A stretch of 64,000 nt of DNA from Ignavibacteria bacterium CG2_30_36_16 (GCA_001873185.1 MNYQ01000136.1:401-64400); one strand, 5' to 3'. Shown: positions 4,899 to 43,812, counted from the stretch's first letter. Made by a program: numbers and translations. Notes: a model not told the origin generated them from the sequence alone.

Positions 4899-5151
4899 TT
4901 GACTCATTTGCGGAAAAATGTACAATCCGTTTGCTAAAGGATGAAGAATGAGCATTGAATATCTGCATGATCTTCCCGGCATATTCAAATTACCGTTTCT
5001 ACCAAGAACTACTCTTTTTTTTTATACATATCAACTGTTCACCATTTAGTACACAACACACTAAAAAGCTTTGTTTATAACCATTAGACTCACTTTATTT
5101 ATGGCATTTGATTTGCAAACCACTATATGAACTTTAATAGAAGGTGATGCC

Positions 5152-31709: not shown

Positions 31710-32321
31710 TTTTCAATTGTTAGTATTAAAAACGCGGGTAAAATTATCAAATTAGGATTATACAATCAATGTATTCTCGATTGATTTAAACAAAAAAGCC
31801 ACGCATATTCCGGCGGGGCTTTTGCGTAAAATAATTATCGAATTGTAGAGTAGGACAAGGGCGCAGTTCCCGCTTGCGGGACTGTTTCTCTTGAACCCCC
31901 GTCACCCGCCCCGTAACAAAAATATTTTTACCGCCAGCTTGATTAATAATTATGAGCGGTTTAACTTGCATTTGCAATTAATGCTAAAGGCTTGGAACTG
32001 GTGACTTTTGATATATTTATTCGGTGTGGTTTTAAGAATTAAATAATCATTTTTTTAATAATACAGAGGGTGTATTATAAACAGTAACTATTTTCTTTTT
32101 CCTAACGGCTTCAGTGTTGTACTTCTTTCAGTTCCGCGCAGCGCGGAAAATACTCCTCTCGAAGGTTCCCGCAATTTAATACTCAATTTTAAAATCTATC
32201 TTTTAGCAATTGTTTTTATTAGCAGGGCAGATGATATTGAACAATTAAATAACCCGGACAAACAGAAAAACAACAACAAATTACTTTTAAGAAAAGAAAT
32301 TTCGCACCCGCGCTTTGCCGA

Positions 32322-32545
32322 CATGCACCCATACAAAGGCTCCATACATTCATTCAAAGCCTTCATACACCCATACAAAGATTCCATACATTCATTCAAA
32401 ACCTCCATGCAGTCATGCAAAGGTTACGTGCATTCAATCAAAGCCATCTTGCGGTCGTTCAAAGCCATCTTGCAGTCATTCAAAGCCATCTTACGTGTGA
32501 GCGAAATCATCTTGCGGGCGTTCAAAGCCATCTTGCAACGGCGCA
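32322..32545. repeat. Tandem array of about 10.5 degenerate 21-bp units
   Basis: Units start at 32322, 32343, 32364 ... 32532. The best-conserved form is CTTGCRGTCRTTCAAAGCCAT, seen in units 7, 8 and 10. Confidence 0.85.
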
Positions 32546-33402: not shown

Positions 33403-33440
33403 CATTATACATTATACATTATACATTGTACATTGTTCAT
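33403..33440. repeat. 7-bp microsatellite (CATTATA-type, about 5 units)
   Basis: cattatacattatacattatacattgtacattgttcat. Confidence 0.8.
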
Positions 33441-33509: not shown

Positions 33510-33556
33510 TAAAAATTTTTGTGAAGGTTTTTGATTTGGAGTTTTTTATTGGTAAG

Positions 33557-33697
33557 CTTTGCTTTTTGCGGATGTAAAAAGTAGAAGGAAATTTTTTCCC
33601 GCTAGAAGCGGGATGTATTCCAAAAATAAAATTAATTGCGGTGTTGTGTTTTAACAACTTGTCCCGATATTATCGGGATAACACGTCGTTATGCGTT
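33557..33697 (+). repeat. attC-like composite repeat, copy A1 (5' limit uncertain)
   Basis: Contains hairpins H2-H5 of the family. It ends gtcccgatattatcgggaTAACacgtcGTTATGCGTT. Confidence 0.75.
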
Positions 33698-33704
33698 CAA
33701 AAAA

Positions 33705-36377
33705 ATGATAAAAAGTATAACAGAATTATCTCCATATGAACTTGGAGAGACCAATAAAATTGAGGCAATACCATTTATTATTGAATATTTGGAAAATGGT
33801 AGTTCCAACGAAAGGAGATTGGCTGCCTCGGCTATCAATAAGCTTAAAATTATTTATCACGAGGAATGTAAATCTGCTATTCCTTATCTAATAAATATTC
33901 TGGATGAATCATACCCTCAACAAACTCAATACGCCTTAAAAGCGCTTCTTGGTTTTGATTTACCCAAATATGCGTTACCTATTTTTAAGAAAATTTCAAT
34001 TGAAGGCAAGAAACCTTATAATAAGGAGCTTGCTTTGCAAATTCTAAATACGAAAAACTTTAAAGGCGAAATTCATAATTCTATGGCAAAAAATACTTTT
34101 ATTGATAATAATATTACTGAAGAGCAAAAGGAAGTTATTCATCACCCATTTGGTAAACACGCCAAAGTTTTAGCGGTTGCTGGTTCTGGGAAAACAACCA
34201 CAATGGCTAATAGAATAATCCACTTGATTAAGAATAGATCAGTTCCAAAAGATTCAATTCAAGTTTTAATGTTTAATAAACTTGCTAAAGATCAATTTGT
34301 TAAAAAACTTTTGCAACTTGGCTTATCATTAGAGAACTCACCATCTGTAAATACGTTCCATTCTTTTTGTTATCGAATAATATCATCTGCAATGTCTAAA
34401 GGTCATCTTCCTAAATATGACAATTGGAATGGAGACAAAGAAGAATTGGTGTGGTTCTATCTTGAACTAGTTATTTCAGAACTTGAAAAAAAGAAACTAA
34501 TTCCTCCAAACAGTGTTGATAGAGATGAATGCAAAAACGCAATAAGTTTATGGAAAGGATCTCTTATTCCACCTAGTAGGGCTGGTTATAAAGGTAATGA
34601 AAATTATGCAATTGTATATAAATATTTTGAAGATAAGCGAAACTACAAAAAAGCCATTACATTTGATGATTTTGTTCCATTAACGATTGAATCAATAACC
34701 GGTTCTAATTCTGCATATTTCAAAGATAATATTTCGTTTTTAATCGTGGACGAGTACCAAGATGTTAATTATGGGCAGCAAAAGTTAATTGAACTAATAA
34801 CAAATAAATCTACAGACATTATGGTCGTTGGAGACGATGACCAAACGATATACGAGTGGAGGGGGGCAAGACCAGAATATATAATTAATGATTTCGATAT
34901 AGTTTTTAATAATAAATCCGTAACAGAATATAAACTTTCACATTCTTTTCGTTTTGGTCCTTTAATCGCACAATCCGCTCAGAATTGTATAAGCCACAAT
35001 ACCAAACGAACAGAAAAGAATCTTCTTTCAAAGTCGATAAATCAATCAATTATTTCTATTCTCAGTGAATCATCAGAACAAAGCACTGATGTTGAAAAAC
35101 AAATGGTAGAGCAGATTATTGTATTGGTTAAAAGCGGACATTCCCTACCAAATGATGTTGTTGTATTAGTTCGTCTGTATCACCAATTGTTCGGTATGGA
35201 GAAGGAATTACTAGCTAGAAAAGTGCCTTATCGAGTGGTAGGTCAAAGTCCATTTTTCGAGAGAAAAGAAATTAAATCCTTAATAAATTATATAACACTA
35301 AGTAAATCACTAGATGTAGCTGTTAATGAGGATAACAAAAACACTCTTTTCTCAATTATTAATTATCCATCGAGGAAAATCACCAGAAGTGAAATTGAGC
35401 GATATGTCAATAAAGCTATATCAAGTGGCGCGACATATAGAGAACTAATCTCAAAGCTTTACGAGGACGAGGTCTCGATATTCATTTCTCTTCAAAAAGA
35501 CAGATTATTAGAATTTCATTATTTACTAGAAAAATTGGAAGAAAAAATTATTGATAAAAATAATTTAGCTGGTAATATTCTAAAGTGGTTAGTGGAGAAA
35601 ATTGAATTAAAAAAATATTTTATTGATTACTATGGCGATGGTGAGTCCTCAAATGATCGTATAAAGGTTGTTGATAAATTTATTGAATATGCTACAAGTA
35701 CAAACAAACCTTTGTCCCATTTTATAGAGCATTTGTCAAAGCTTGATACTACAAGAGGTAAAAGACCTGAAGAGCAAATATTATTAACATCAATTTTCAG
35801 AACAAAAGGTTTGGAATATGACTATGTCTTTATCCCAGAATGTATCGAAGGAAATATGCCTTGCCTAAAGGGTAATGAAATTAATATTTATGACAAAACT
35901 AGCCAAGTAAAGGAGCCGAAACCCTCAGAGGTTATACAAAATGAAAGACGTTTATTTTATGTCGCTATAACAAGGGCTCGAAAAGCCTGTTTTGTTGGAA
36001 CTTCATCGATTCCAAAGGAGGGTCTTCAACAGTCCTCAAATCCGGCAAAACATTCAAGATTCATTGAAGAGATTGAATTTGATAAGCTATCAAAAATATA
36101 TAATTACCTTAATCTTTCAGAAATATCAGATGAGGATTTTAATAAGCTAATAAATGACGTCAACACAAATTCATTAAACAAAAATACTCTTAATAATTTT
36201 CTGTACTATTTAACGGATAAACTTGATACAAACAAACTAGGTCAATTAAGTAAAATAATATTAAAATTATCACCCAAACCATTTTGTTATGCAACGAGTT
36301 ATAATTCTGATTTAGAATCAAGTAAAATTAAGAAACCAGAAAAATGGAGAAGTATTTGGGACGAAATAGAATTATAA
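33705..36377 (+). CDS. UvrD/Rep-family helicase with an N-terminal HEAT-repeat domain (cassette 1)
   Basis: Helicase motifs are AVAGSGKTTT, VDEYQDVN, VGDDDQTIYEWRGA, FRTKGLEYD and FYVAITRARK. The N-terminal ~140 aa are HEAT-like. The start is taken at ATG 33705 because the track's 33636 start lies inside repeat A1. Confidence 0.85.
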   Translation: MIKSITELSPYELGETNKIEAIPFIIEYLENGSSNERRLAASAINKLKIIYHEECKSAIPYLINILDESYPQQTQYALKALLGFDLPKYALPIFKKISIEGKKPYNKELALQILNTKNFKGEIHNSMAKNTFIDNNITEEQKEVIHHPFGKHAKVLAVAGSGKTTTMANRIIHLIKNRSVPKDSIQVLMFNKLAKDQFVKKLLQLGLSLENSPSVNTFHSFCYRIISSAMSKGHLPKYDNWNGDKEELVWFYLELVISELEKKKLIPPNSVDRDECKNAISLWKGSLIPPSRAGYKGNENYAIVYKYFEDKRNYKKAITFDDFVPLTIESITGSNSAYFKDNISFLIVDEYQDVNYGQQKLIELITNKSTDIMVVGDDDQTIYEWRGARPEYIINDFDIVFNNKSVTEYKLSHSFRFGPLIAQSAQNCISHNTKRTEKNLLSKSINQSIISILSESSEQSTDVEKQMVEQIIVLVKSGHSLPNDVVVLVRLYHQLFGMEKELLARKVPYRVVGQSPFFERKEIKSLINYITLSKSLDVAVNEDNKNTLFSIINYPSRKITRSEIERYVNKAISSGATYRELISKLYEDEVSIFISLQKDRLLEFHYLLEKLEEKIIDKNNLAGNILKWLVEKIELKKYFIDYYGDGESSNDRIKVVDKFIEYATSTNKPLSHFIEHLSKLDTTRGKRPEEQILLTSIFRTKGLEYDYVFIPECIEGNMPCLKGNEINIYDKTSQVKEPKPSEVIQNERRLFYVAITRARKACFVGTSSIPKEGLQQSSNPAKHSRFIEEIEFDKLSKIYNYLNLSEISDEDFNKLINDVNTNSLNKNTLNNFLYYLTDKLDTNKLGQLSKIILKLSPKPFCYATSYNSDLESSKIKKPEKWRSIWDEIEL

Positions 36378-36572
36378 ACGCATAACAAGTTATTCCGTTT
36401 AAAGTCAACTTAAAATTTAGATGTTCGTTAAATTTTGTTAAGTGCTTTCGGGGCGTAGTTATCCCGAAAAAACAAAAACAACCCTTGCTTTTTGCGTATG
36501 TAAAAAGTAGAAGGAAATCATTAAAATAAAATTAAATACGGTGTTGTGTTTTAACAACTTGTCCCGTTCGTT
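36377..36572 (+). repeat. attC-like composite repeat, copy A2 (H3 deleted, 3' end truncated)
   Basis: Begins with AACGCATAAC, the exact reverse complement of 33688-33697. It shares the 5' module with A5, lacks the TCCCGC..GCGGGA hairpin, and ends gtcccGTTCGTT. Confidence 0.75.
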
Positions 36573-36824
36573 AGCCAACGGATTGCCAGTGGAGTTTGTA
36601 TATACAGAATTAGCGCAATGAAGGAAGGGAAAACACTTTTTAATGAATCCAAGCAGATGGTATTAGTCAAATAATAAAAATGAGGCGTCTTTTTAAAAAT
36701 AAATTTTAATAAAAATATAGTATGCAAACCGCCTTGCATACTATAAGAAATTTTGGCAGCATAATTAATACTTAACCATTTTGGTTAAAATCTAATAATA
36801 ATATTTTTCTAAGGAGGAAAATTT

Positions 36825-39140
36825 GTGAAAAGAGCAGCTTTACTTATCGCCTTTGTAATTCTTGGCAATATTACAATTGCACAGTGGGTACAAACCAATG
36901 GACCGTACGGCGGCGAAATTCAATGCTTTGCCGTCTCGGGCTCGAATCTCTTTGCCGGAACTTATGGCGGCGGCGTCTTTCTTTCCACTAACAACGGCAC
37001 AAGCTGGACGGAGGTCAATTCTGGTTTGACTAATACTGATGTAAGTGCCCTTGCCGTCTCGAGCTTGAATCTCCTTGCCGGAACTCGTGGCGGCGGCGTC
37101 TTTCTATCGACCAACAACGGCACAAGCTGGACAGCAGTCAATTCTGGTTTGACCAATAATTCTGTACATGCCCTTGCCGTCTCGGGCACGAATCTCTTTG
37201 CCGGGACCGGTGGTGGCGTCTTTCTTTCCACGGACAACGGCACAAGCTGGACTGCGGTCAATTCTGGTTTGACCAGTACTAGAGTATATGCCCTTGCCGT
37301 CTCGGGCTTGAATCTCTTTGCCGGAACTTGGAACAGCGGCGTCTTTCTATCCACCAACAACGGCACAAGCTGGACGGAGGTCAATTCCGGTTTGACCAGT
37401 ACCTATGTGTATGCCCTTGCCGTCTCGGGATCGAATCTCTTTGCCGGAACTTATTACGGCGGCGTCTTTCTTTCCACTAACAACGGCACAAGCTGGACGG
37501 AGGTCAATTCTGGTTTGACTAATACTTCTGTACGTGCCCTTGCCGTCTCCGGCACGAATCTCTTTGCCGGAACTCTTGGCGGTGTCTTTCTTTCCACCAA
37601 CAACGGCACAAGCTGGACGGAGGTCAATTCTGGTTTGACTAATACTCATGTACTTGCCTTTGCCGTCTCGGGCGTGAATCTCTTTGCCGGAACTTGGGGC
37701 GGCGTCTTTCTTTCCACCAACAACGGCACAAGCTGGACGGAGGTCAATTCTGGTTTGACCAATTCTTATGTATTTGCCTTTGCAGTCTCGGGCTCGAATC
37801 TCTTTGCCGGAATTTATGGCGGCGTCTTTCTTTCCACTAACAACGGCACAAGCTGGACGGCGGTCAATTCTGGTTTGACTAATACTTCTGTACGTGCCCT
37901 TGCCGTCTCCGGCTCGAATCTCTTTGCCGGAACTGATTACGGCGGCGTCTTTCTTTCCACTAACAACGGCACAAGCTGGACGGAGGTCAATTCTGGTTTG
38001 ACTAATACTTTTGTACTTGCCCTTGCCGTCTCGGGCTCGAATCTCTTTGCCGGAACTGGCGGCGGCGGCGTCTTTCTTTCCACCAACAACGGCACAAGCT
38101 GGACGGAAGTCAATTCTGGTTTGACCAATACTTCTGTACTTGACTTTGCCGTCTCGGGCTCGAATCTCTTTGCCGGAACTTTTAACGGCGTCTTTCTTTC
38201 CACCAACAACGGCACAAACTGGACGGCGGTCAATTTTGGTTTGACCAATACTTATGTAAGAGTCTTTGCTGTCTCAAGCTCGAATCTCTTCGCCGGAACT
38301 GAGGGCGGGGTCTTTCTTTCCACCAACAACGGCACAAGCTGGACGGCGGTCAATTCTGGTTTGACTAATACTCATGTACTTGCCTTTGCCGTCTCTGGCG
38401 CGAATCTCTTTGCCGGAACTTATAGCGGCGTCTTTCTTTCCACCGACAACGGCACAAGCTGGACGGCGGTCAATTCTGGTTTGACCTATACTTATGTCAA
38501 TGCCCTTGCCGTCTCGGGCGTGAATCTCTTTGCCGGGACTTGGGGCGGCGGTGTTTGGAGAAGGCCCTTGGATGAGATACCAGTAGAGCTCACATCATTC
38601 GCAGCATCAGTACAGGAAAATAAAGTTGTTCTTAACTGGGCAACGGCAACAGAAACAAATAATCAGGGATTTGAGATTGAAAGAAAACTATTCGGCAGTA
38701 ATTATGAAAAAATTGGATCTGTAACTGGTTTCGGAACGACAACCGAACCAAAATCATATTCATTTAAAGATGAAAATGTTACTAGTGAAAAATATTCATA
38801 TAGATTAAAACAGATTGACTTTGACGGAACATTTGAATACTCAAATGTGATAGAAGTAGAAGTTGACTTTACTCCCAAAGAATATACACTCTATCAAAAC
38901 TACCCCAACCCATTCAACCCAAGCACAACAATCAGCTTCTCAATTCCTGAGGGGAGTTTTGTAACGCTTAAAATTTATGATATGCTTGGAAGAGAAGTAG
39001 CGATTCTTATCTCCGAAGAATTATCTGCCGGAACCTACTCACAGCAATGGAATGCAGTAGGGTTAGCAGGCGGAATTTACTTCTATAGTTTGCAAGCAGG
39101 TTCTTTCGTTGAGACCATGAAACTCGTTTTGCTTAAGTAA
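36825..39140 (+). CDS. Secreted beta-propeller-type repeat protein (BNR/Ycf48-like repeats) with a T9SS C-terminal sorting domain
   Basis: GTG start with AGGAGG upstream, followed by a signal peptide. It carries about 13-14 repeats of roughly 40 aa (GGVFLSTNNGTSWTEVNSGLTNTxVxALAVSGSNLFAGT). The C-terminus is NYPNPFNPSTTISF...GIYFYSLQAG. Confidence 0.88.
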   Translation: MKRAALLIAFVILGNITIAQWVQTNGPYGGEIQCFAVSGSNLFAGTYGGGVFLSTNNGTSWTEVNSGLTNTDVSALAVSSLNLLAGTRGGGVFLSTNNGTSWTAVNSGLTNNSVHALAVSGTNLFAGTGGGVFLSTDNGTSWTAVNSGLTSTRVYALAVSGLNLFAGTWNSGVFLSTNNGTSWTEVNSGLTSTYVYALAVSGSNLFAGTYYGGVFLSTNNGTSWTEVNSGLTNTSVRALAVSGTNLFAGTLGGVFLSTNNGTSWTEVNSGLTNTHVLAFAVSGVNLFAGTWGGVFLSTNNGTSWTEVNSGLTNSYVFAFAVSGSNLFAGIYGGVFLSTNNGTSWTAVNSGLTNTSVRALAVSGSNLFAGTDYGGVFLSTNNGTSWTEVNSGLTNTFVLALAVSGSNLFAGTGGGGVFLSTNNGTSWTEVNSGLTNTSVLDFAVSGSNLFAGTFNGVFLSTNNGTNWTAVNFGLTNTYVRVFAVSSSNLFAGTEGGVFLSTNNGTSWTAVNSGLTNTHVLAFAVSGANLFAGTYSGVFLSTDNGTSWTAVNSGLTYTYVNALAVSGVNLFAGTWGGGVWRRPLDEIPVELTSFAASVQENKVVLNWATATETNNQGFEIERKLFGSNYEKIGSVTGFGTTTEPKSYSFKDENVTSEKYSYRLKQIDFDGTFEYSNVIEVEVDFTPKEYTLYQNYPNPFNPSTTISFSIPEGSFVTLKIYDMLGREVAILISEELSAGTYSQQWNAVGLAGGIYFYSLQAGSFVETMKLVLLK
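36900..38560 (+). repeat. In-frame tandem DNA repeats (period about 120-123 nt) inside the beta-propeller gene
   Basis: gtcaattctggtttgac recurs at 37016, 37138, 37258, 37623, 37743, 37863, 37986, 38109, 38349 and 38469. One-mismatch variants (gtcaattccggtttgac, gtcaattttggtttgac) fill the series at 37379 and 38229. The flanking sequence is near-identical between units. Confidence 0.9.
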
Positions 39141-39258
39141 AACGAAAGCGGAAATCTTTTCCCGCTAGAAGCGGGATTGGCGCCCAAAATAATTAATATG
39201 GCAATGTTGTGTTTTAACAACTTGTCCCGCTTTGCGGGCTAACACGCCGTTATATAGC
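39141..39258 (+). repeat. attC-like composite repeat, copy A3 (short form, H3-H5 only)
   Basis: aacgaaagcggaaatcttttCCCGCtagaaGCGGG...gtcccgctttgcgggcTAACacgccGTTATATAGC. Confidence 0.75.
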
Positions 39259-39269
39259 TTAGGAAAACT

Positions 39270-39971
39270 ATGACAATTGATAATTCAGAAATAATTCTGA
39301 AATGGTATATTGATTTAGAAGAAAGATTCGTAAGTTTGACTAAATCAATTCCAATAAATCCCAAAAACATAAAAGTAGAATTACCACTATTAGCTAGCAT
39401 TATTGTGGAAGGTGGAAGTTTAATTGACACCATTTTTAGAGAAGAATGTAATAATGGTAAAAGAAAAGATAGAAACAATATTGGCGCTTATTGTAAATAT
39501 TTTGAGCCTCAGATTCATTTAATGAATGCATTATCTGTCCCGCTTGTATTTCCACCACAATATTTAAACCCATTTAAAGGTTGGTATGTTAAGTCAAGGA
39601 ACGATTATAAGGCAAGAAAATGGTGGCAGAATTATAATTTTATTAAACATAGCCGTATAGAGAATTCGCATTTTTCAACAATGGAAACAGCTTTTTTAAC
39701 ATTATGTGGTTTACACCAAGTAATGACAAAGATTGACATATTTATTGATAGTTTGTTACGAAATGGATTTGTTTCTTATGGCGGATTAAATCTTGATTAC
39801 TTATTGAACAAGATAAGAAACAAAGAATATTATGGAAGGATATTAATTGAAACAAAATTATTCGCAACTCCATTTGGTATCCACAACTTTCCTAAGGATA
39901 TAAATCATATTCGTCCAATTGATTGGGGAAGTAGTAGAAAATTTTCTGAGTTTTTAGGTAGAGAAAGTTAA
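39270..39971 (+). CDS. Hypothetical protein (cassette 3), possible HEPN-type nuclease
   Basis: 233 aa. The segment WWQNYNFIKHSRIENSH contains an R-x4-H motif of HEPN type. This rests on motif-level evidence only. Confidence 0.6.
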   Translation: MTIDNSEIILKWYIDLEERFVSLTKSIPINPKNIKVELPLLASIIVEGGSLIDTIFREECNNGKRKDRNNIGAYCKYFEPQIHLMNALSVPLVFPPQYLNPFKGWYVKSRNDYKARKWWQNYNFIKHSRIENSHFSTMETAFLTLCGLHQVMTKIDIFIDSLLRNGFVSYGGLNLDYLLNKIRNKEYYGRILIETKLFATPFGIHNFPKDINHIRPIDWGSSRKFSEFLGRES

Positions 39972-39974
39972 AAC

Positions 39975-40318
39975 GCTATATACCGTTACAAGGTTTCACG
40001 CCAAGCGCAGCCGGGCATAATCCAGTGTTCCCCGTAAAGAAACGGGGTCTATGGATGGACTAAGCCGAAAAGCGGCTTAACCCGGACACTTGCATTTTCA
40101 GTAGTACATTTTATAAGTGTGTTAACTCTTGCGGGACGCAGCTATCCCGAAAGAAGAATATAACCCTTCCTTTTTGCGTATGTAAAAAGTAGAAGGAAAT
40201 CTTTTCCCGCTAGAAGCGGGATTGGCGCTCAAAATAATTAATACAGCAGTGTTGTGTTTTAACAACTTGTCCCGCCCGTTAGCCAACGGACTGACGGGAT
40301 AAAAAGGCGTTATACTGA
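39975..40318 (+). repeat. attC-like composite repeat, copy A4 (unique 5' multi-hairpin module plus H1-H5)
   Basis: Begins with GCTATATAcC, which matches the reverse complement of 39249-39258 at 9 of 10 positions. It ends gtcccgCCCGTTAGCCAACGGactgacgggaTAAAaaggcGTTATACTGA. Confidence 0.75.
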
Positions 40319-40399
40319 TAGAGAAATAATTACATCAATACTTGAATTTCTTTTTTGGCTTTTCTATTATTAAGCCTATAAAATAAAGAAGGTGTGAAA

Positions 40400-40600
40400 A
40401 TGGATTCAAAAAATATTATTCAAAGCGCATTAAATCTAAGCCCTGCGGAGAGACTTTTTATAATTGATGCTATTTCTAAAAGTTTAAGTGAGCCTGATAA
40501 AGATATTGATGAATATTGGAAAGACGAAGTTGAAAAACGATATGATGCTTTTATAAAAGGGAAAGTAAAAAGAATTCCTTACGAGGAAATTAGAAAATAA
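40400..40600 (+). CDS. Antitoxin, putative addiction-module component (TIGR02574-like)
   Basis: The sequence SALNLSPAERLFIIDAISKSL...YWKDEVEKRYDAFIKGKV matches the family pattern. The stop overlaps the toxin start. ATG 40400 is preferred to GTG 40394. Confidence 0.8.
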   Translation: MDSKNIIQSALNLSPAERLFIIDAISKSLSEPDKDIDEYWKDEVEKRYDAFIKGKVKRIPYEEIRK

Positions 40601-40887
40601 TGTTAGTTGAATTTCTTGAACCTGCACATATAGAATATCAAGAAGCTATCGAATTTTATAATCTGCAAAGTGAAGGATTGGGCGATAAATTTATTATTGA
40701 AGTAGATAGGACTATATCAATAATAAAAAAATATCCAGAGAGTTTTTGCGAATATACTAGCCATACAAGAAAAGCTGTTGTGAGTATTTTCCCTTATAAT
40801 ATTATTTATGCTCTTCACAAAAATTACATTGAAGTAATTGCAATTGCACACCAACATAGAAAACCGAATTTTTGGTTAAATAGATAA
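40600..40887 (+). CDS. Type II toxin, RelE/ParE family
   Basis: 95 aa. The ParE-like pattern is LEPAHIEYQEAIEFY at the N-terminus and AIAHQHRKP at the C-terminus. Confidence 0.8.
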   Translation: MLVEFLEPAHIEYQEAIEFYNLQSEGLGDKFIIEVDRTISIIKKYPESFCEYTSHTRKAVVSIFPYNIIYALHKNYIEVIAIAHQHRKPNFWLNR

Positions 40888-40896
40888 TAGCAAAAG

Positions 40897-41154
40897 CAGT
40901 ATAATCAGTTACTCCGATTAAAGCCAACTTAAAATTTAGATGTTCGTTAAACTTTTTTAAGTGCTTTCGGGGCGCAGCTATCCCGAAAGAACAAAAACAA
41001 CCCTTGCTTTTTGCGTATGTAAAAAGTAGAAGGAAATCTTTTCCCGCCGGAAGCGGGATTGGTGCCCAAAATAATTAATACGGCAGTGTTGTGTTTTAAC
41101 AACTTGTCCCGTCCGTTAGCCAACGGACTGACGGTTAACGCGCCGTTAGCAATT
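40897..41154 (+). repeat. attC-like composite repeat, copy A5 (full-length reference copy)
   Basis: CAGTATAA (40897-40904) is the reverse complement of 40310-40317. Hairpins are H1 40964-40989, H2 41002-41033, H3 41042-41058, H4 41088-41103 and H5 41106-41134. The unit ends TTAAC gcgcc GTTAGCA. Confidence 0.8.
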
Positions 41155-41245
41155 CAAAGGTTTAAGCCAATTTAAAGATTTATTTGGAAGGTTTCTAAAG
41201 AAATTCTCCACTTGATTAAAGTAAGCCAATGGATTATATTCGCAT

Positions 41246-41581
41246 ATGCTAATTACAATTGTTGAATTACCTGAATATATAAAGAGCGCAGAAAAAGAAC
41301 TATCAAAAGATGAAAGAGATGAATTGATTTATTATTTGTCTTCTAATCCTAAAGCTGGAACTTTAATGCAAGGAACTGGAGGTGTAAGAAAGTTAAGGTG
41401 GGCTTCAAAAGGTAAAGGTAAAAGCGGTGGTTCCAGAGTTATATACTTTTACTATAATGAAACTATTCCCCTATTCTTATTAACAATATTCGGGAAAAAT
41501 GAAAAGATTAATTTAAGCAAAGCTGAACGGAATGAATTAGCAAAATTTGTAAAAGAATTAGTAAAAAGTTATAAAAGGTAA
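41246..41581 (+). CDS. Type II toxin, RelE/HigB-like (cassette 5)
   Basis: 111 aa. The motif GGVRKLRWASKGKGKSGGSRVIYFY is typical of HigB-2-type toxins that sit upstream of an HTH antitoxin. Confidence 0.78.
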   Translation: MLITIVELPEYIKSAEKELSKDERDELIYYLSSNPKAGTLMQGTGGVRKLRWASKGKGKSGGSRVIYFYYNETIPLFLLTIFGKNEKINLSKAERNELAKFVKELVKSYKR

Positions 41582-41584
41582 AAA

Positions 41585-41872
41585 ATGAGTGAAGCATATA
41601 AAAGTATAAGTAAAGGATTGAAAGAAGCAATTGAATATTCTAAAGGAAATAATAAGGGAGTCAGAGAATTTAGGGCGAAACATATTGATGTGAAAAAGTT
41701 GAGAGAAAGAATTGGAATGAGTCAGCCAAAATTTGCAGCGTCATTTGGGATTAGTTTGGGAACATTAAGACATTGGGAAAGAAGAGATAGGTATCCACAA
41801 GGTCCGGCTTTAGTTTTATTAAATTTATTATCAAAAGACCCAAACACAGTATTAGAAGTTTTACATAAGTAA
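41585..41872 (+). CDS. HTH (XRE-type) antitoxin, HigA-like
   Basis: 95 aa. The HTH segment is LRERIGMSQPKFAASFGISLGTLRHWE. It lies 3 nt downstream of the toxin gene. Confidence 0.8.
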   Translation: MSEAYKSISKGLKEAIEYSKGNNKGVREFRAKHIDVKKLRERIGMSQPKFAASFGISLGTLRHWERRDRYPQGPALVLLNLLSKDPNTVLEVLHK

Positions 41873-41895
41873 GTTGCGCAACCTAACCAGTGCTT

Positions 41896-42132
41896 GCTAA
41901 TGAACCACTATCGCTAATGCCGGAATGCTAAAGTGTGGTTGCAGAATAAGAGGCGTTTTAAGAATAAACGGCATCAATAGGATTTTTTTTAAATATAAAT
42001 CGGAAAAATGAACATAGCTATTTGGCGACCATTGAAAGCTTAAAAAAAATTACAGAATAGGCTCAAATTATTTTTATAAAACAGCGTCTGTTTATGTCGC
42101 TGCAATTTGGTTAAGCAAATAACCAAAATATC
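41896..42132 (+). repeat. Non-coding repeat B, copy B1
   Basis: About 237 nt that align with 43022-43260 along the whole length, with roughly nine in ten positions identical by eye. No ORF is present. Confidence 0.85.
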
Positions 42133-42169
42133 TAGATTTTAGAGGATAATAATTTTGTCACTTTGGGTG

Positions 42170-42294
42170 TTGAGATTTTTTCCCGCTAAAAGCGGGATTG
42201 GTGCCCAAAATAATTAATACGGCAGTGTTGGATTTTAATAACATGTCCCATCCGTTAGCTAACGGACCATCGGGATAACACGCCGTTAGGTGCT
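42170..42294 (+). repeat. attC-like composite repeat, copy A6 (H3-H5 part)
   Basis: tttttTCCCGCtaaaaGCGGGAttggtgcccaaaataattaatacggcag...gtcccaTCCGTTAGCTAACGGAccatcgggaTAACacgccGTTAGGTGCT. Confidence 0.75.
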
Positions 42295-42365
42295 TAATTA
42301 GTTTATTTTATTTCAAAAATAGAGTAAATTAGAGAAAGCAATATTAGAAGACAGGATAATAAGAA

Positions 42366-42608
42366 ATGGAAAATGAAGGATTTTATAATAAGTTCGAATC
42401 ACTTCCAATAGAAGCACAGAAACAAGTATTGACGTTTATAGATTTCTTACAAAAAAGATATGAATCTAAAAGCAAAAAGCTTCGCGAATGGAAACCTATA
42501 AAAGATAAGAAATTTGTTGGGATATGGGAAAACCGGGAAGATGTAAATGATAGCTCTTTATGGATAAGGAATTTACGAAAGAAAGAGTGGAGAGAAATTG
42601 GCGAATAA
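42366..42608 (+). CDS. Antitoxin (DUF2281-like) paired with a PIN toxin
   Basis: 80 aa. The segment LPIEAQKQVLTFIDFLQKRY is typical of DUF2281. It overlaps the PIN gene by 11 nt. Confidence 0.72.
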   Translation: MENEGFYNKFESLPIEAQKQVLTFIDFLQKRYESKSKKLREWKPIKDKKFVGIWENREDVNDSSLWIRNLRKKEWREIGE

Positions 42609-42990
42609 TTTTTCAATAATTGATTCTGATATACTGATTGATATTGGAAGAAAGGATACAACAGCAATAAAAAGGCTGGAAGAAGAACGAAAAACTTCCA
42701 TGCCAGCAATTAGCTCGGTTACTCAAATGGAATTACTTATTGGTTGTAGAAATAAAACTGAATTAAAACATTTAGATAAATTCCTAGAAGATTTTGAAAT
42801 CATTAGCTTTAACTACGAGATAACACAAAAAGCAATTGAACTTCTTAAAGAATATAAACTTAGCCACGGATTATTAATAGCAGATAGTATTATAGCAGCT
42901 ACTTCACTGGTTTTAGATGTACCTCTTTTAACAAAGAATCAAAAAGATTATAAGTTTATTAGTGGCTTAAAATTATTAAAATATCCTTAA
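42598..42990 (+). CDS. vapC: PIN-domain toxin (VapC-like)
   Basis: 130 aa. Acidic residues sit in the PIN pattern (IIDSDILID, QMELL, LIADSIIAAT). Confidence 0.8.
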   Translation: MANNFSIIDSDILIDIGRKDTTAIKRLEEERKTSMPAISSVTQMELLIGCRNKTELKHLDKFLEDFEIISFNYEITQKAIELLKEYKLSHGLLIADSIIAATSLVLDVPLLTKNQKDYKFISGLKLLKYP

Positions 42991-43021
42991 TCAGCAAGAG
43001 CGCACACACTACCATGCTGCT

Positions 43022-43260
43022 GCTAATGAACCACTATCGCTAATGCCGGAATGCTAAAGTGTGGTTGCAGAATAAGAGGCGTTTTAAGAATAAACGGCAT
43101 CAATTGGATTTTATTTTTTAATATAAAACAGAAAAATGAACATAGCTATTTGGCTACCATTGAAGACTTAAAAAAAATTACAGAATAGGCTCAAATTGTT
43201 TTTATAAAATAGCGTCTGTTTATGTCGCTTCAATTTGGTTTAGTGAATAACCATAATACC
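43022..43260 (+). repeat. Non-coding repeat B, copy B2
   Basis: Paralogue of 41896-42132, again placed immediately after a toxin-antitoxin module. Confidence 0.85.
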
Positions 43261-43770: not shown

Positions 43771-43812
43771 ATTCAAAATTCATAATTCATAATTCATAAT
43801 TCATAATTCAAT
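43771..43812. repeat. 7-bp microsatellite (ATTCATA x4 plus degenerate flanking units)
   Basis: attcaaaattcataattcataattcataattcataattcaat. Confidence 0.85.

Follow-up and report, generated by a model that had tools for sequence, protein, structure and literature searches.

Within the 64-kb window (the whole stretch of DNA analyzed here), which derives from the chromosome of an uncultured member of the Ignavibacteriaceae, positions 33549–42288 probably represent a CALIN-like cassette array of the integron type. Its attC-like sites are composite and unusually long, and it is located away from any integrase. The key new result is a complementarity between the boundaries of the gene units: The sequence that follows G|TTA ahead of a gene recurs, as its reverse complement, just before the ...TAAC behind the same gene. 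This corresponds to the core/inverse-core (R'/R'') relation of integron cassettes, and because of this relation the spacer reaching from R'' to R' behaves as an attC-like site.

Repeat copies and gene units of the array

The array alternates six copies of a repeat (A1–A6) with six gene modules, and all copies are found on the + strand, one per gene unit and co-oriented with the genes. Both the six-copy family and its uniform orientation had been proposed in an earlier, sequence-only reading, and an independent repeat search recovered the copies as families D2/D4/D11 at 33549, (36541), 39112, 40157, 40994, and 42133. A 26-nt core, GTGTTGTGTTTTAACAACTTGTCCCG, occurs five times at ≤1 mismatch versus 0 expected, with A6 as a sixth copy that carries more mismatches. 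Similarity from copy to copy ends abruptly at ...CGTTA, and five copies terminate in a box of the form TAAC-N5-GTTA; that reading had placed the boxes exactly in A1 (33679–33691), A3 (39240–39252), A5 (41136–41148), and A6 (42276–42288), and had correctly described the one in A4 as degenerate (TAAA-AAGGC-GTTA, 40300–40312).

All units described in the following lie on the + strand. Spacer A1 (33549–33691) consists of the core only, ends in TAAC-ACGTC-GTTA, and shows no recognizable R''-type 5' end. Cassette 1 (33688–36386) has a left arm GTTATGCGTT (33688–33697) and an R'' AACGCATAAC (36377–36386), complementary at 10 of 10 positions, around an ORF for a UvrD-type helicase (33705–36377; Pfam UvrD-helicase and UvrD_C), for which PADLOC reported only generic similarity to GajB/DRT-helicase. 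Spacer A2 (36377–36585) joins R'', AA, and GTTATTCCG (the "X" 5' module) to a truncated core (36477–36585), which breaks off past an inserted palindrome and lacks the 3' box. It precedes a GC-rich gene for a protein with BNR/Sortilin repeats and, at the C terminus, a T9SS sorting domain (36825–39140; Pfam), in front of which no left arm was recognized, and directly 3' of the stop codon of this gene begins A3 (39141–39252; 112 nt), ending in TAAC-ACGCC-GTTA. In cassette 3 (39249–39984) a left arm GTTATATAGC (39249–39258) and a right arm GCTATATACC (39975–39984), with 9 of 10 positions complementary, enclose a 233-aa ORF (39270–39971) without a match in Pfam or PADLOC; the full-length "Z" spacer A4 (39975–40312; 338 nt) then runs from R'' through GTTACAAGG..., several hairpins, and the core to its degenerate box.

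The remaining three cassettes carry toxin–antitoxin pairs. Cassette 4 (40309–40905) encodes an Unstab_antitox protein (40394–40600) and a ParE-like protein (40600–40887) between a left arm GTTATACTG (40309–40317) and a right arm CAGTATAAT (40897–40905), complementary at 8 of 9 positions, with promoter-like sites at 40342–40384, within the cassette. It is followed by the "X" spacer A5 (40897–41148; 252 nt), which reads R''-CA-GTTACTCCG ... CGGTTAAC-GCGCC-GTTA. Cassette 5 (41145–41887), with left arm GTTAGCAATT, encodes a RelE-like protein (PF06296; 41246–41581) and an HTH_3 antitoxin-like protein (41585–41872); its R'' (ACCTAAC, 41881–41887) pairs weakly with its own left arm (5/7), and the same R'' matches the following GTTAGGT at 7/7. 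The "Y" spacer A6 (41881–42288; 408 nt) ends in TAAC-ACGCC-GTTA and is followed by cassette 6 (42285–42990), with left arm GTTAGGTGCT, a DUF2281 antitoxin-like protein (42366–42608), and a PIN toxin (42598–42990). No clear R'' was found downstream of cassette 6, where 43005–43013 reads CACACTACC; a decayed last spacer, A7 (43014–43258), retains only the Y module (91–98% identical to 41895–42130), with neither core nor box. Partner arms were thus recognized for neither A1, the BNR cassette, nor the last cassette. The Pfam assignments agree with the module content named previously (UvrD helicase, BNR/T9SS, 233-aa unknown, Unstab_antitox with ParE, RelE with HTH_3, and DUF2281 with PIN). Low GC content was correctly noted for most of the array (31–34% compared with 35–40% in the flanks) but does not hold for the BNR gene (45–52%), and the short gaps between repeat and start codon apply to two cassettes (13 and 17 nt) but not to the three toxin–antitoxin cassettes (77–97 nt).

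The position of the repeat 3' end, 13–97 nt ahead of the next start codon, is what a promoter or 5' leader driving each downstream gene would show. We nevertheless regard such a role as extremely improbable: The stop codon of the preceding gene marks the start of the repeat, which contains no recurrent promoter-like site (51 sites vs. 40.6 ± 6.5 expected), terminal copies that close an array face a convergent gene in two related contigs (L014; L008 4807–4902), and no copies were seen upstream of core genes.

From R'' to the G of the box, the spacers measure 210–407 nt (median 235). Spacers are composed of lineage-specific modules (X, Y, Z, and W), optional hairpins, and inserted genome-wide palindromes, such as TCCGTTAGCYAACGGA, which is present in some repeat copies. 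The 5' end of the X class reads R''-NN-GTTATTCCG, of which GTTATTCCG is complementary to CGG(G)ATAAC. Canonical attC sites have unpaired spacers of ~5–6 nt between R and L boxes on each arm, extrahelical bases on the L'' side, and 7-nt arms; the X-type sites have an R''-L'' spacer of only 2 nt and carry one or two extra bases on the L'' side of the GTTATTCCG/CGG(G)ATAAC pairing; in the local hairpin the extra bases lie on the arm opposite to the canonical extrahelical bases. An L box was recognized only in the X class, and none in the Z, Y, and W types or in a second spacer family. The interpretation of TAAC-N5-GTTA as L'-spacer-R' hence fits the X class, and this layout is present in spacer family 1, but it is not universal, as the second family has the 3' end ...TTGCCACGCCGTTA, with the compensatory pairs GGCAT/ATGCC and GGCGT/ACGCC.

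Complementarity across gene units

In the window as well as in related arrays, ...TAAC is found 0–15 nt past a stop codon and ...GTTA ahead of the next gene. To quantify the match between the two ends of a cassette, the position of R'' was set independently, through the conserved module 3' of it. The 20 nonredundant cassettes matched their own arm at 4.8 of 6 variable positions on average (null 2.5, z 8.2, 0 of 10,000 permutations), with at least five matches in 14 of the 20, whereas R'' compared with the start of the next cassette gave 2.1 of 6 (null 2.0). A scan free of any assumption on sites agreed with this: 13 of 39 own pairs, compared with 3.7% of non-own pairs, reached 10 or more matched bases. 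When the own left arm was appended, the spacer ends paired (7–12 bp) in five of seven foldings, including A4, but in none of seven with the neighbor's arm; arms of cassettes span 8–12 nt. Adjacent to the presumed crossover, standard pairs occupy 89.9% of cells, compared with 28–45% when the partners are slid, with a few compensatory changes.

It should be noted that a stem around each ORF predicts the own-arm complementarity equally well at the RNA level, where the units would be polycistronic transcripts, the arms long-range stems (e.g., for RNase III processing or stabilization), and the spacers structured intercistronic RNA. Co-orientation of all units is in line with this, as is the folding of the spacers, which are more stable than shuffled sequences also under RNA parameters (z −3.9). 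We consider an RNA-level function quite unlikely: It gives no account of the invariant GTTA/TAAC, which equal integron core sites, nor of the accessory cargo, and it leaves the exact breaks in similarity at the arms between genomes unexplained. In addition, the promoter-like sites of the toxin–antitoxin cassettes lie 3' of the left arm, implying transcripts without it; by inspection, arm mismatches show no sense-strand G-U bias; and Rfam searches with the repeat and with the leader described below returned no matching family.

For the integron-type reading, attC sites are defined by AAC/GTT triplets and R and L boxes, with the crossover in AAC (PMC5027507). The mobile unit would accordingly comprise TTA-N6-8, one gene or one toxin–antitoxin pair, and an attC-like site, whose first element, right past the stop codon, would be an N6-8-TAAC specific to the cassette (R'') and which would close 110–420 nt further on at ...CACGCC-G, this G being the first base of the R' GTTA. 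In the excised single strand, R'' would pair with the G and with the unit's own TTA-N6-8, giving an R box of 8–12 bp that holds the AAC/GTT triplets cut by integron integrases, and an imperfect hairpin with a bulged base would adjoin the crossover point. In the X class, GTTATTCCG/CGGATAAC may serve as the L box, and the interior of the site, built from the modules X, Y, Z, and W, could be seen as an over-long "variable terminal structure." We infer that such single strands fold and that strand exchange at G|TT is carried out by a tyrosine recombinase of the IntI type whose gene lies elsewhere in the genome. Counting against this reading are the length of the sites, which are two to three times longer than those described, their R''-L'' spacing of 0–2 nt, the restriction of the L box to the X class, the arm on which the extra bases of the local hairpin lie, and the missing partner arms of A1, the BNR cassette, and the last cassette. 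The sequence-only reading had already pointed out the excess length, and the sites of the window indeed measure 112–408 nt, compared with a described range of 57–141 bp (PMC5027507).

Related arrays in the Ignavibacteriaceae

The repeat family is confined to genomes of Ignavibacteria/Ignavibacteriaceae and to metagenome contigs. Other Ignavibacteriaceae metagenome-assembled genomes (MAGs) and metagenome contigs encode same-strand arrays of two to six copies with unrelated cargo, and one MAG has copies scattered over at least seven contigs. Pfam families among 62 cassette ORFs include PhdYeFM, PIN, BrnT, ParE, YoeB, AbiV, SieB, TIR, nucleases, and T9SS proteins; the cargo rich in toxin–antitoxin modules that had been described for the window thus recurs in the related arrays, together with antiphage defense families. 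Upstream of the array, a conserved noncoding "leader" (31895–32450, + strand), with 21-nt tandem repeats (32280–32540) beginning inside it, has segments of 86–90% identity upstream of two other arrays with the same repeat (L010 3210–2657 and L001 5419–5158).

Comparison between genomes revealed break points at the arms. The 3' end of the BNR gene together with A3 is 94% identical to L006 1–819, and identity stops directly after GCCGTTATAT, past which unrelated genes follow; a break at the box was one of the checks suggested earlier. A cassette for a DinB-like protein is common to L006 and L062 exactly from box to R''. Scattering over several contigs, a mosaic repeat with optional hairpins, and the presence of the genome-wide palindrome in some copies could also point to a selfish intergenic element (MITE-, REP-, or PATE-like), with genes shuffled by homologous recombination between copies. 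This is very unlikely in our view, given that such an element predicts neither the complementary, cassette-specific arms around each gene nor the strict co-orientation, the single copy per unit, and the cargo rich in toxin–antitoxin and defense genes; the copies moreover end in ...TAAC / GTTA..., and neither terminal inverted repeats nor target duplications were found in the repeat.

The DinB-like cassette has the same two arms in L006 and L062, but its site interior is X-type in the former and W-type in the latter, with similarity stopping exactly at ...GGTATAAC. Similarly, a cassette pair in L016 and L060 encodes proteins of 51% identity between near-identical arms (GTTATGT(C/T)GCT / GCAACATAAC), followed by different interiors. 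These two cases are not predicted for a canonical cassette, since such a cassette keeps its own attC. They could reflect a noncanonical mechanism in which gene units (G|TTA... to ...TAA|C) and structured spacers would be two separately exchangeable modules, possibly through recombination at the two arms of the R stem by a top- plus bottom-strand crossover or by a different, hairpin-recognizing recombinase. The arm length of 8–12 nt instead of the canonical 7 and the lack of an adjoining integrase at any of >25 distinct arrays point the same way, and low-frequency top-strand recombination in R'' is known (PMC5027507). We still judge this mechanism to be unlikely: The cross-lineage examples number only two, lineage-specific attC families are also found in sedentary integrons (Vibrio repeats), the AAC/GTT triplets indicate IntI, and no candidate for an alternative recombinase was seen.

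Cassette presence/absence polymorphism among close strains, for which the sequence-only reading had proposed a check, was not observed: The array has the same content in ten contigs that come from different samples, represent near-identical strains, and share one flanking protein without any difference, and thus lacks the turnover between strains that characterizes sedentary integrons. In relatives at ~57% identity the array is absent from the syntenic site, a distance too large to inform on turnover.

Recombinase search and comparison with known systems

Complete integrons have already been reported in the Ignavibacteriae (PMC9024848). In agreement with the earlier statement that the 64-kb window lacks a tyrosine recombinase gene, tblastn with approximate sequences of IntI1, VchIntIA, and XerD as queries detected neither IntI nor any other tyrosine recombinase in the window and related loci (563 kb in total). 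When nearly all window ORFs of at least 110 aa were scanned against Pfam, the scans identified only housekeeping families beyond the cargo and no recombinase, and those of related-array ORFs no tyrosine recombinase; the array therefore differs from a complete integron in having no adjoining intI.

A CALIN is a cluster of two or more same-strand attC sites without an integron integrase within a few kb (Cury et al. 2016, PMC4889954); operationally, its sites are those matched by the attC covariance model of IntegronFinder. With five boxed same-strand sites in 8.7 kb and no recombinase in 64 kb, the array resembles a CALIN, provided that its sites count as attC, but it is assigned by layout and not by covariance model, and its sites exceed 57–141 bp. 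The own-arm R'/R'' signature, the break points between genomes, and the cargo of related arrays all favor the CALIN-type reading first put forward for this locus, and the complete integrons reported from the Ignavibacteriae are in line with it.

Sedentary chromosomal integrons with species-specific attC repeats, such as the Vibrio cholerae superintegron, share the co-oriented small cassettes with many toxin–antitoxin and defense genes, the highly similar, lineage-specific family of attC repeats, and sites that extend from ...TAAC behind a gene to ...GTTA ahead of the next, with R'' complementing the start of its own cassette. The V. cholerae repeats (VCRs) are ~120–130 nt long, in contrast to the Ignavibacteriaceae spacers of 210–407 nt with their interchangeable modules, 0–2-nt R''-L'' spacing, and arms of 8–12 nt. 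The Ignavibacteriaceae arrays are also short (2–7 units) and distributed over several chromosomal loci, none seen beside an integrase, and three of them open with the shared noncoding leader instead of intI-attI. Mobile integron attC sites (e.g., that of aadA7; 57–70 nt) have the AAC/GTT triplets and the L'-spacer-R' layout (TAAC-N5-GTTA) in common with the array, and one Ignavibacteriaceae spacer class starts with TAAC-CC-GTTCTTCAAGCCGAC, resembling the TAAC-AATTC-GTTCAAGCCGAC start of aadA-type attC; the Ignavibacteriaceae sites are 3- to 7-fold longer, however, and their interior is conserved and multi-hairpin and not a simple stem. The XerC/D-dependent pdif modules of Acinetobacter plasmids are likewise small, often encode toxin–antitoxin pairs, and are flanked by short recombination sites whose arms form inverted repeats. 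Their 28-bp sites are double-stranded, of fixed sequence, and in alternating orientation, whereas the arms found here differ from cassette to cassette and complement each other across the gene, which points to folded single strands.

The repeat family and the arms of its cassettes

The window probably holds an integron-type array resembling a CALIN (a cluster of attC sites with no integron integrase nearby), with unusually long, modular attC sites on which an IntI from elsewhere in the genome would act in trans. A repeat search recovered the repeat family that the sequence-only reading had claimed, and at the same place, with members at 33549, 39112, 40157, 40994, and 42133 and a shorter one at 36541; five instances of its 26-nt core were found at no more than one mismatch, where chance predicts none. 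An nhmmer profile made from the copies gave exactly six matches in the 64-kb window, all on the + strand. Similarity in the six-copy alignment breaks off sharply at ...CGTTA, and the positions earlier assigned to the TAAC-N5-GTTA box proved exact; the copy at 36477-36585 is cut short and lacks the box.

The bases after G|TTA 5' of a gene (the left arm) are the reverse complement of those preceding ...TAAC 3' of the same gene (the right arm). In the helicase cassette GTTATGCGTT (33688-33697) matches AACGCATAAC (36377-36386) at 10/10 positions; the 233-aa ORF is flanked by GTTATATAGC and GCTATATACC (9/10), and the ParE pair by GTTATACTG and CAGTATAAT (8/9). At related loci outside the window the match reaches 12/12 (L031, L061, and L034) and is 11/12 in L045, L054, and L030. 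To avoid circularity, R'' (the inverse core behind the gene) was placed solely via the conserved module 3' of it. Over 20 nonredundant cassettes, 4.8 of the 6 variable positions were complementary to the cassette's own start (null 2.5; z 8.2; 0 of 10,000 permutations reached the observed value), and a site-free scan gave the same answer; for the start of the next cassette, that is, the 3' box of the same spacer, the value was 2.1 of 6 (null 2.0). When the spacer was folded together with the left arm of its own cassette, mimicking an excised circle, its ends paired over 7-12 bp in five of seven cases, compared with none of seven when the arm of the array neighbor was appended. This own-arm relation is the one between core and inverse core by which integron cassettes are defined, and it would put the crossover at G|TT; in attC sites, R' and R'' together make up the R box, and its conserved AAC triplet is where recombination occurs (PMC5027507). 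Stems acting at the RNA level on either side of each ORF are a quite unlikely explanation of the pairing, and the arm mismatches, judged by eye, show no wobble bias that would speak for RNA rather than DNA pairing.

Composite spacers and the layout of the sites

The intergenic regions are composite. A core of ~90 nt (...CCTTCCTTTTTGCGTATGTAAAAAGTAGAAGGAAATC...AAAATAATTAATACGGCAGTGTTGTGTTTTAAC...TAACACGCCGTTA) is common to all copies, and is optionally accompanied by the hairpin TCCCGCTAGAAGCGGGA, by an inner hairpin (AACTTGTCCCG...CGGGA) that is missing in "short" copies of other genomes, and, in nested copies, by the palindrome TCCGTTAGCYAACGGA. Upstream of the core sit alternative 5' modules, namely X (36382-36522 and 40901-41041), Y (41895-42130 and 43021-43258), Z (40013-40200, and abundant in related genomes), and W, seen in another lineage; each begins directly 3' of a short ...TAAC that comes after the upstream gene's stop codon. 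Neither the repeat nor the leader with which the array opens matched an Rfam family, whether gathering or permissive thresholds were applied.

The terminal ~60 nt, adjoining the presumed crossover, are able to fold into an imperfect hairpin (ACGGC-A-GTGTT ... AACAC-GCCGT) whose inner stem is CCCG/CGGG. Among 24 copies, standard pairs fill 89.9% of cells compared with 28-45% for slid partners, in a test that is lenient because the structure was derived from the same sequences, and a few compensatory changes occur. RNAalifold on these 24 copies returned local hairpins only, with next to no covariation, the copies being too alike for it. In a second spacer family the ending is different, ...TTGCCACGCCGTTA, with a compensatory GGCATTG/CAATGCC against GGCGT/ACGCC; the TAAC-N5-GTTA box is therefore typical of family 1 and not universal. 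The universal site end is ...CGCCGTTA, with a stem 5' of it. X-type sites run R''-NN-GTTATTCCG, complementary to CGG(G)ATAAC, the L'' side having a surplus of one or two bases; this would correspond to the canonical R''-L''...L'-R' arrangement, though with less spacer.

Two other placements of the site were considered. A compact canonical attC within the 3' 45-75 nt (R'' = TTTTAAC, L'' = GTCCCG...) is doubtful: the "short" copies are entirely without that hairpin (...GTGTTTTAAC-A-TAACACGCCGTTA), and the cassette-specific partner of R' sits at the far 5' end of the spacer. A reading on the opposite strand was rejected, although it puts the extra bases canonically, since the crossover would fall inside conserved sequence and not at the cargo boundary.

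Some spacers start TAAC-CC-GTTCTTCAAGCCGAC... (L068 minus strand, about 911-990 in reverse-complement coordinates; L016 2032-2075; L066), resembling aadA-type mobile attC sites in their R''-L'' region, TAAC-AATTC-GTTCAAGCCGAC; this likeness may be due to chance or to shared ancestry. In T9SS-tail genes, the final codons (...K-x-V-L-L-K-stop) double as the 5' arm of the core's first hairpin (window 39112-39145; L006 706-740; L009 50-90), which reads CGTTTT...AAAACG at these genes compared with CTTTTT...AAAAAG in other copies, so that part of the core may, on its sequence, have arisen from the 3' ends of genes of this kind, or overlap them. The 16-nt palindrome TCCGTTAGCYAACGGA is found in intergenic DNA throughout the window (20 strand-hits against 0.03 expected; at 4926, 30110, 30170, 33493, 36567, 40275, and 41112, and further at 42251, 43372, 43711, 45790, 46462, and 50549) which marks it as an element in its own right, present genome-wide; it is also nested in the hairpin loop of cassette spacers, in places two or three copies deep, and appears to be a REP-like element with hairpin loops as its targets.

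Distribution, break points, and the missing integrase

An exact-pattern scan of one genome per species showed the core to be confined to Ignavibacteriaceae/Ignavibacteria MAGs, at 17 loci of which seven lie on different contigs of a single MAG; metagenomes gave 41 more loci, all but three distinct from that of the window, and the viral contig collection yielded none. The related loci are same-strand arrays of 2-6 copies between co-oriented genes; a selfish intergenic repeat is a very improbable account of them. Some copies close their array and point toward a convergent gene, which speaks against the repeat being a simple 5' leader, and a promoter scan found no recurrent promoter-like site in the repeat; that it serves as a promoter or leader is scarcely credible.

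Three independent arrays at different chromosomal loci open with the same noncoding leader in place of intI-attI (window 31895-32450; L010 2657-3210; L001 5158-5419; 86-90% conserved). This leader has no Rfam match and no conserved ORF, the proteins adjacent to it in the three arrays are unrelated to one another, and it could be an attI-like or promoter region. The first cassette of L001 starts ...AATG|GTTAGCCAGCAC, with 9/12 positions complementary to its own R''. At the 3' end of the leader lie at least 10 tandem 21-nt repeats (CATACAnnCATnCAAAGnnTC; window 32280-32540, also in L010 and at 5-196 of L003), which are not convincingly coding.

The interpretation offered by the sequence-only reading is supported, with the integrase still missing. 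As that reading had stated, there is none in the window: tblastn with IntI1, VchIntIA, and XerD was negative there, and found no integrase in the ~560 kb of window and related loci, a weak match in L056 being spurious. Complete integrons have been reported for Ignavibacteriae (PMC9024848), and an IntI encoded elsewhere in the genome would act on these sites in trans. Further points against a plain integron are the length of the attC-like sites (210-407 nt compared with the described 57-141 bp; PMC5027507), their unusual spacing, an L box recognizable in one class only, and the leader that opens three arrays where a plain integron has intI-attI. It also counts against a plain integron that cassette polymorphism among strains, which had been proposed as a check, did not appear, array content being identical in ten contigs from different samples with an identical flanking protein. 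The closest relatives to which the flanking DUF6873 protein led share only 55-63% identity and are too distant to be informative on cassette turnover; one keeps downstream synteny, and the two inspected have no array and no repeat copy at this position.

Exact break points were seen between genomes. The 3' end of the BNR gene and the spacer behind it (A3) are 94% identical to the start of contig L006, a likeness that stops directly after GCCGTTATAT, with unrelated genes next. A DinB-like cassette is common to L006 and L062 (91% identity) exactly from the box to R'' (GGTATAAC), and is followed by an X-type interior in one genome and a W-type interior in the other; cassettes of L016 and L060 encode proteins only 51% identical, have nearly identical arms, and again continue into different interiors. 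These two cases suggest that the gene unit with both its arms can be separated from the spacer interior, which is lineage-specific. The interior swapping they display also favors the same architecture with crossover at both arms or a different recombinase, which we nevertheless consider rather unlikely. A more far-reaching version, and a doubtful possibility, is a cassette system of the Ignavibacteriaceae with two alternating, independently exchangeable kinds of module: a gene unit bounded by unit-specific inverted arms of 8-12 nt (G|TTA-N... / ...N-TAA|C), and a lineage-specific structured spacer of 200-400 nt. It would imply crossover at both folded R stem arms, or a recombinase other than a neighboring IntI. 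If true, it would show directly how one gene gains different host-specific attC interiors, and would bear on the unsolved origin of integron cassettes and of species-specific attC sites; the two cases themselves, if upheld, offer a handle on attC acquisition and on why attC sites are homogeneous within a host.

Returning to the integron-type array, cassette arrays, CALINs, and host-specific attC families are already known. What appears new are attC-like sites two to three times the described maximum length, their modular, lineage-specific interiors, the arms of 8-12 nt, and short arrays dispersed far from any integrase; we found no account of such long modular sites in the searchable literature. 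Integron surveys detect attC sites via a covariance model whose training sites fall in the described 57-141 bp range. A lineage with modular sites of 200-400 nt would probably be invisible to them, and missed long sites would understate the spread of cassette arrays outside the Proteobacteria.

Cargo and chromosomal setting

The cargo is as previously described, with a UvrD helicase, a BNR/Sortilin T9SS protein, a 233-aa orphan, and three toxin-antitoxin pairs (Unstab_antitox+ParE, RelE+HTH, and DUF2281+PIN). A Pfam census of 62 genes 3' of a box returned PhdYeFM, PIN, BrnT, ParE, YoeB, AbiV-HEPN, SieB, TIR, REase-ARP, PD-(D/E)XK, HIRAN, EVE, and T9SS proteins, and no recombinase. Toxin-antitoxin modules and anti-phage genes are the cargo now linked with sedentary integrons, and these arrays carry the same kind. 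Outside the array the window is ordinary chromosome (pyrimidine synthesis, an AddA-like helicase-nuclease, complex-I-like subunits, GlnE, and others), with no recombinase or transposase in this remainder; no tRNA or tmRNA genes were found.

The BNR gene contains thirteen tandem coding repeats of 120/123 nt (36849-38603), at 45-52% GC compared with 32% in the rest of the array. Its length varies among near-identical strains (771 aa in the window, 811 aa in L022, and broken in L024), a pattern that points to a varying number of repeats or to collapse during assembly. The noncoding DNA at the two array edges (33406-33437 and 43776-43812) contains short tandem repeats, CATTATA/CATTGTA units and TTCATAA x5.
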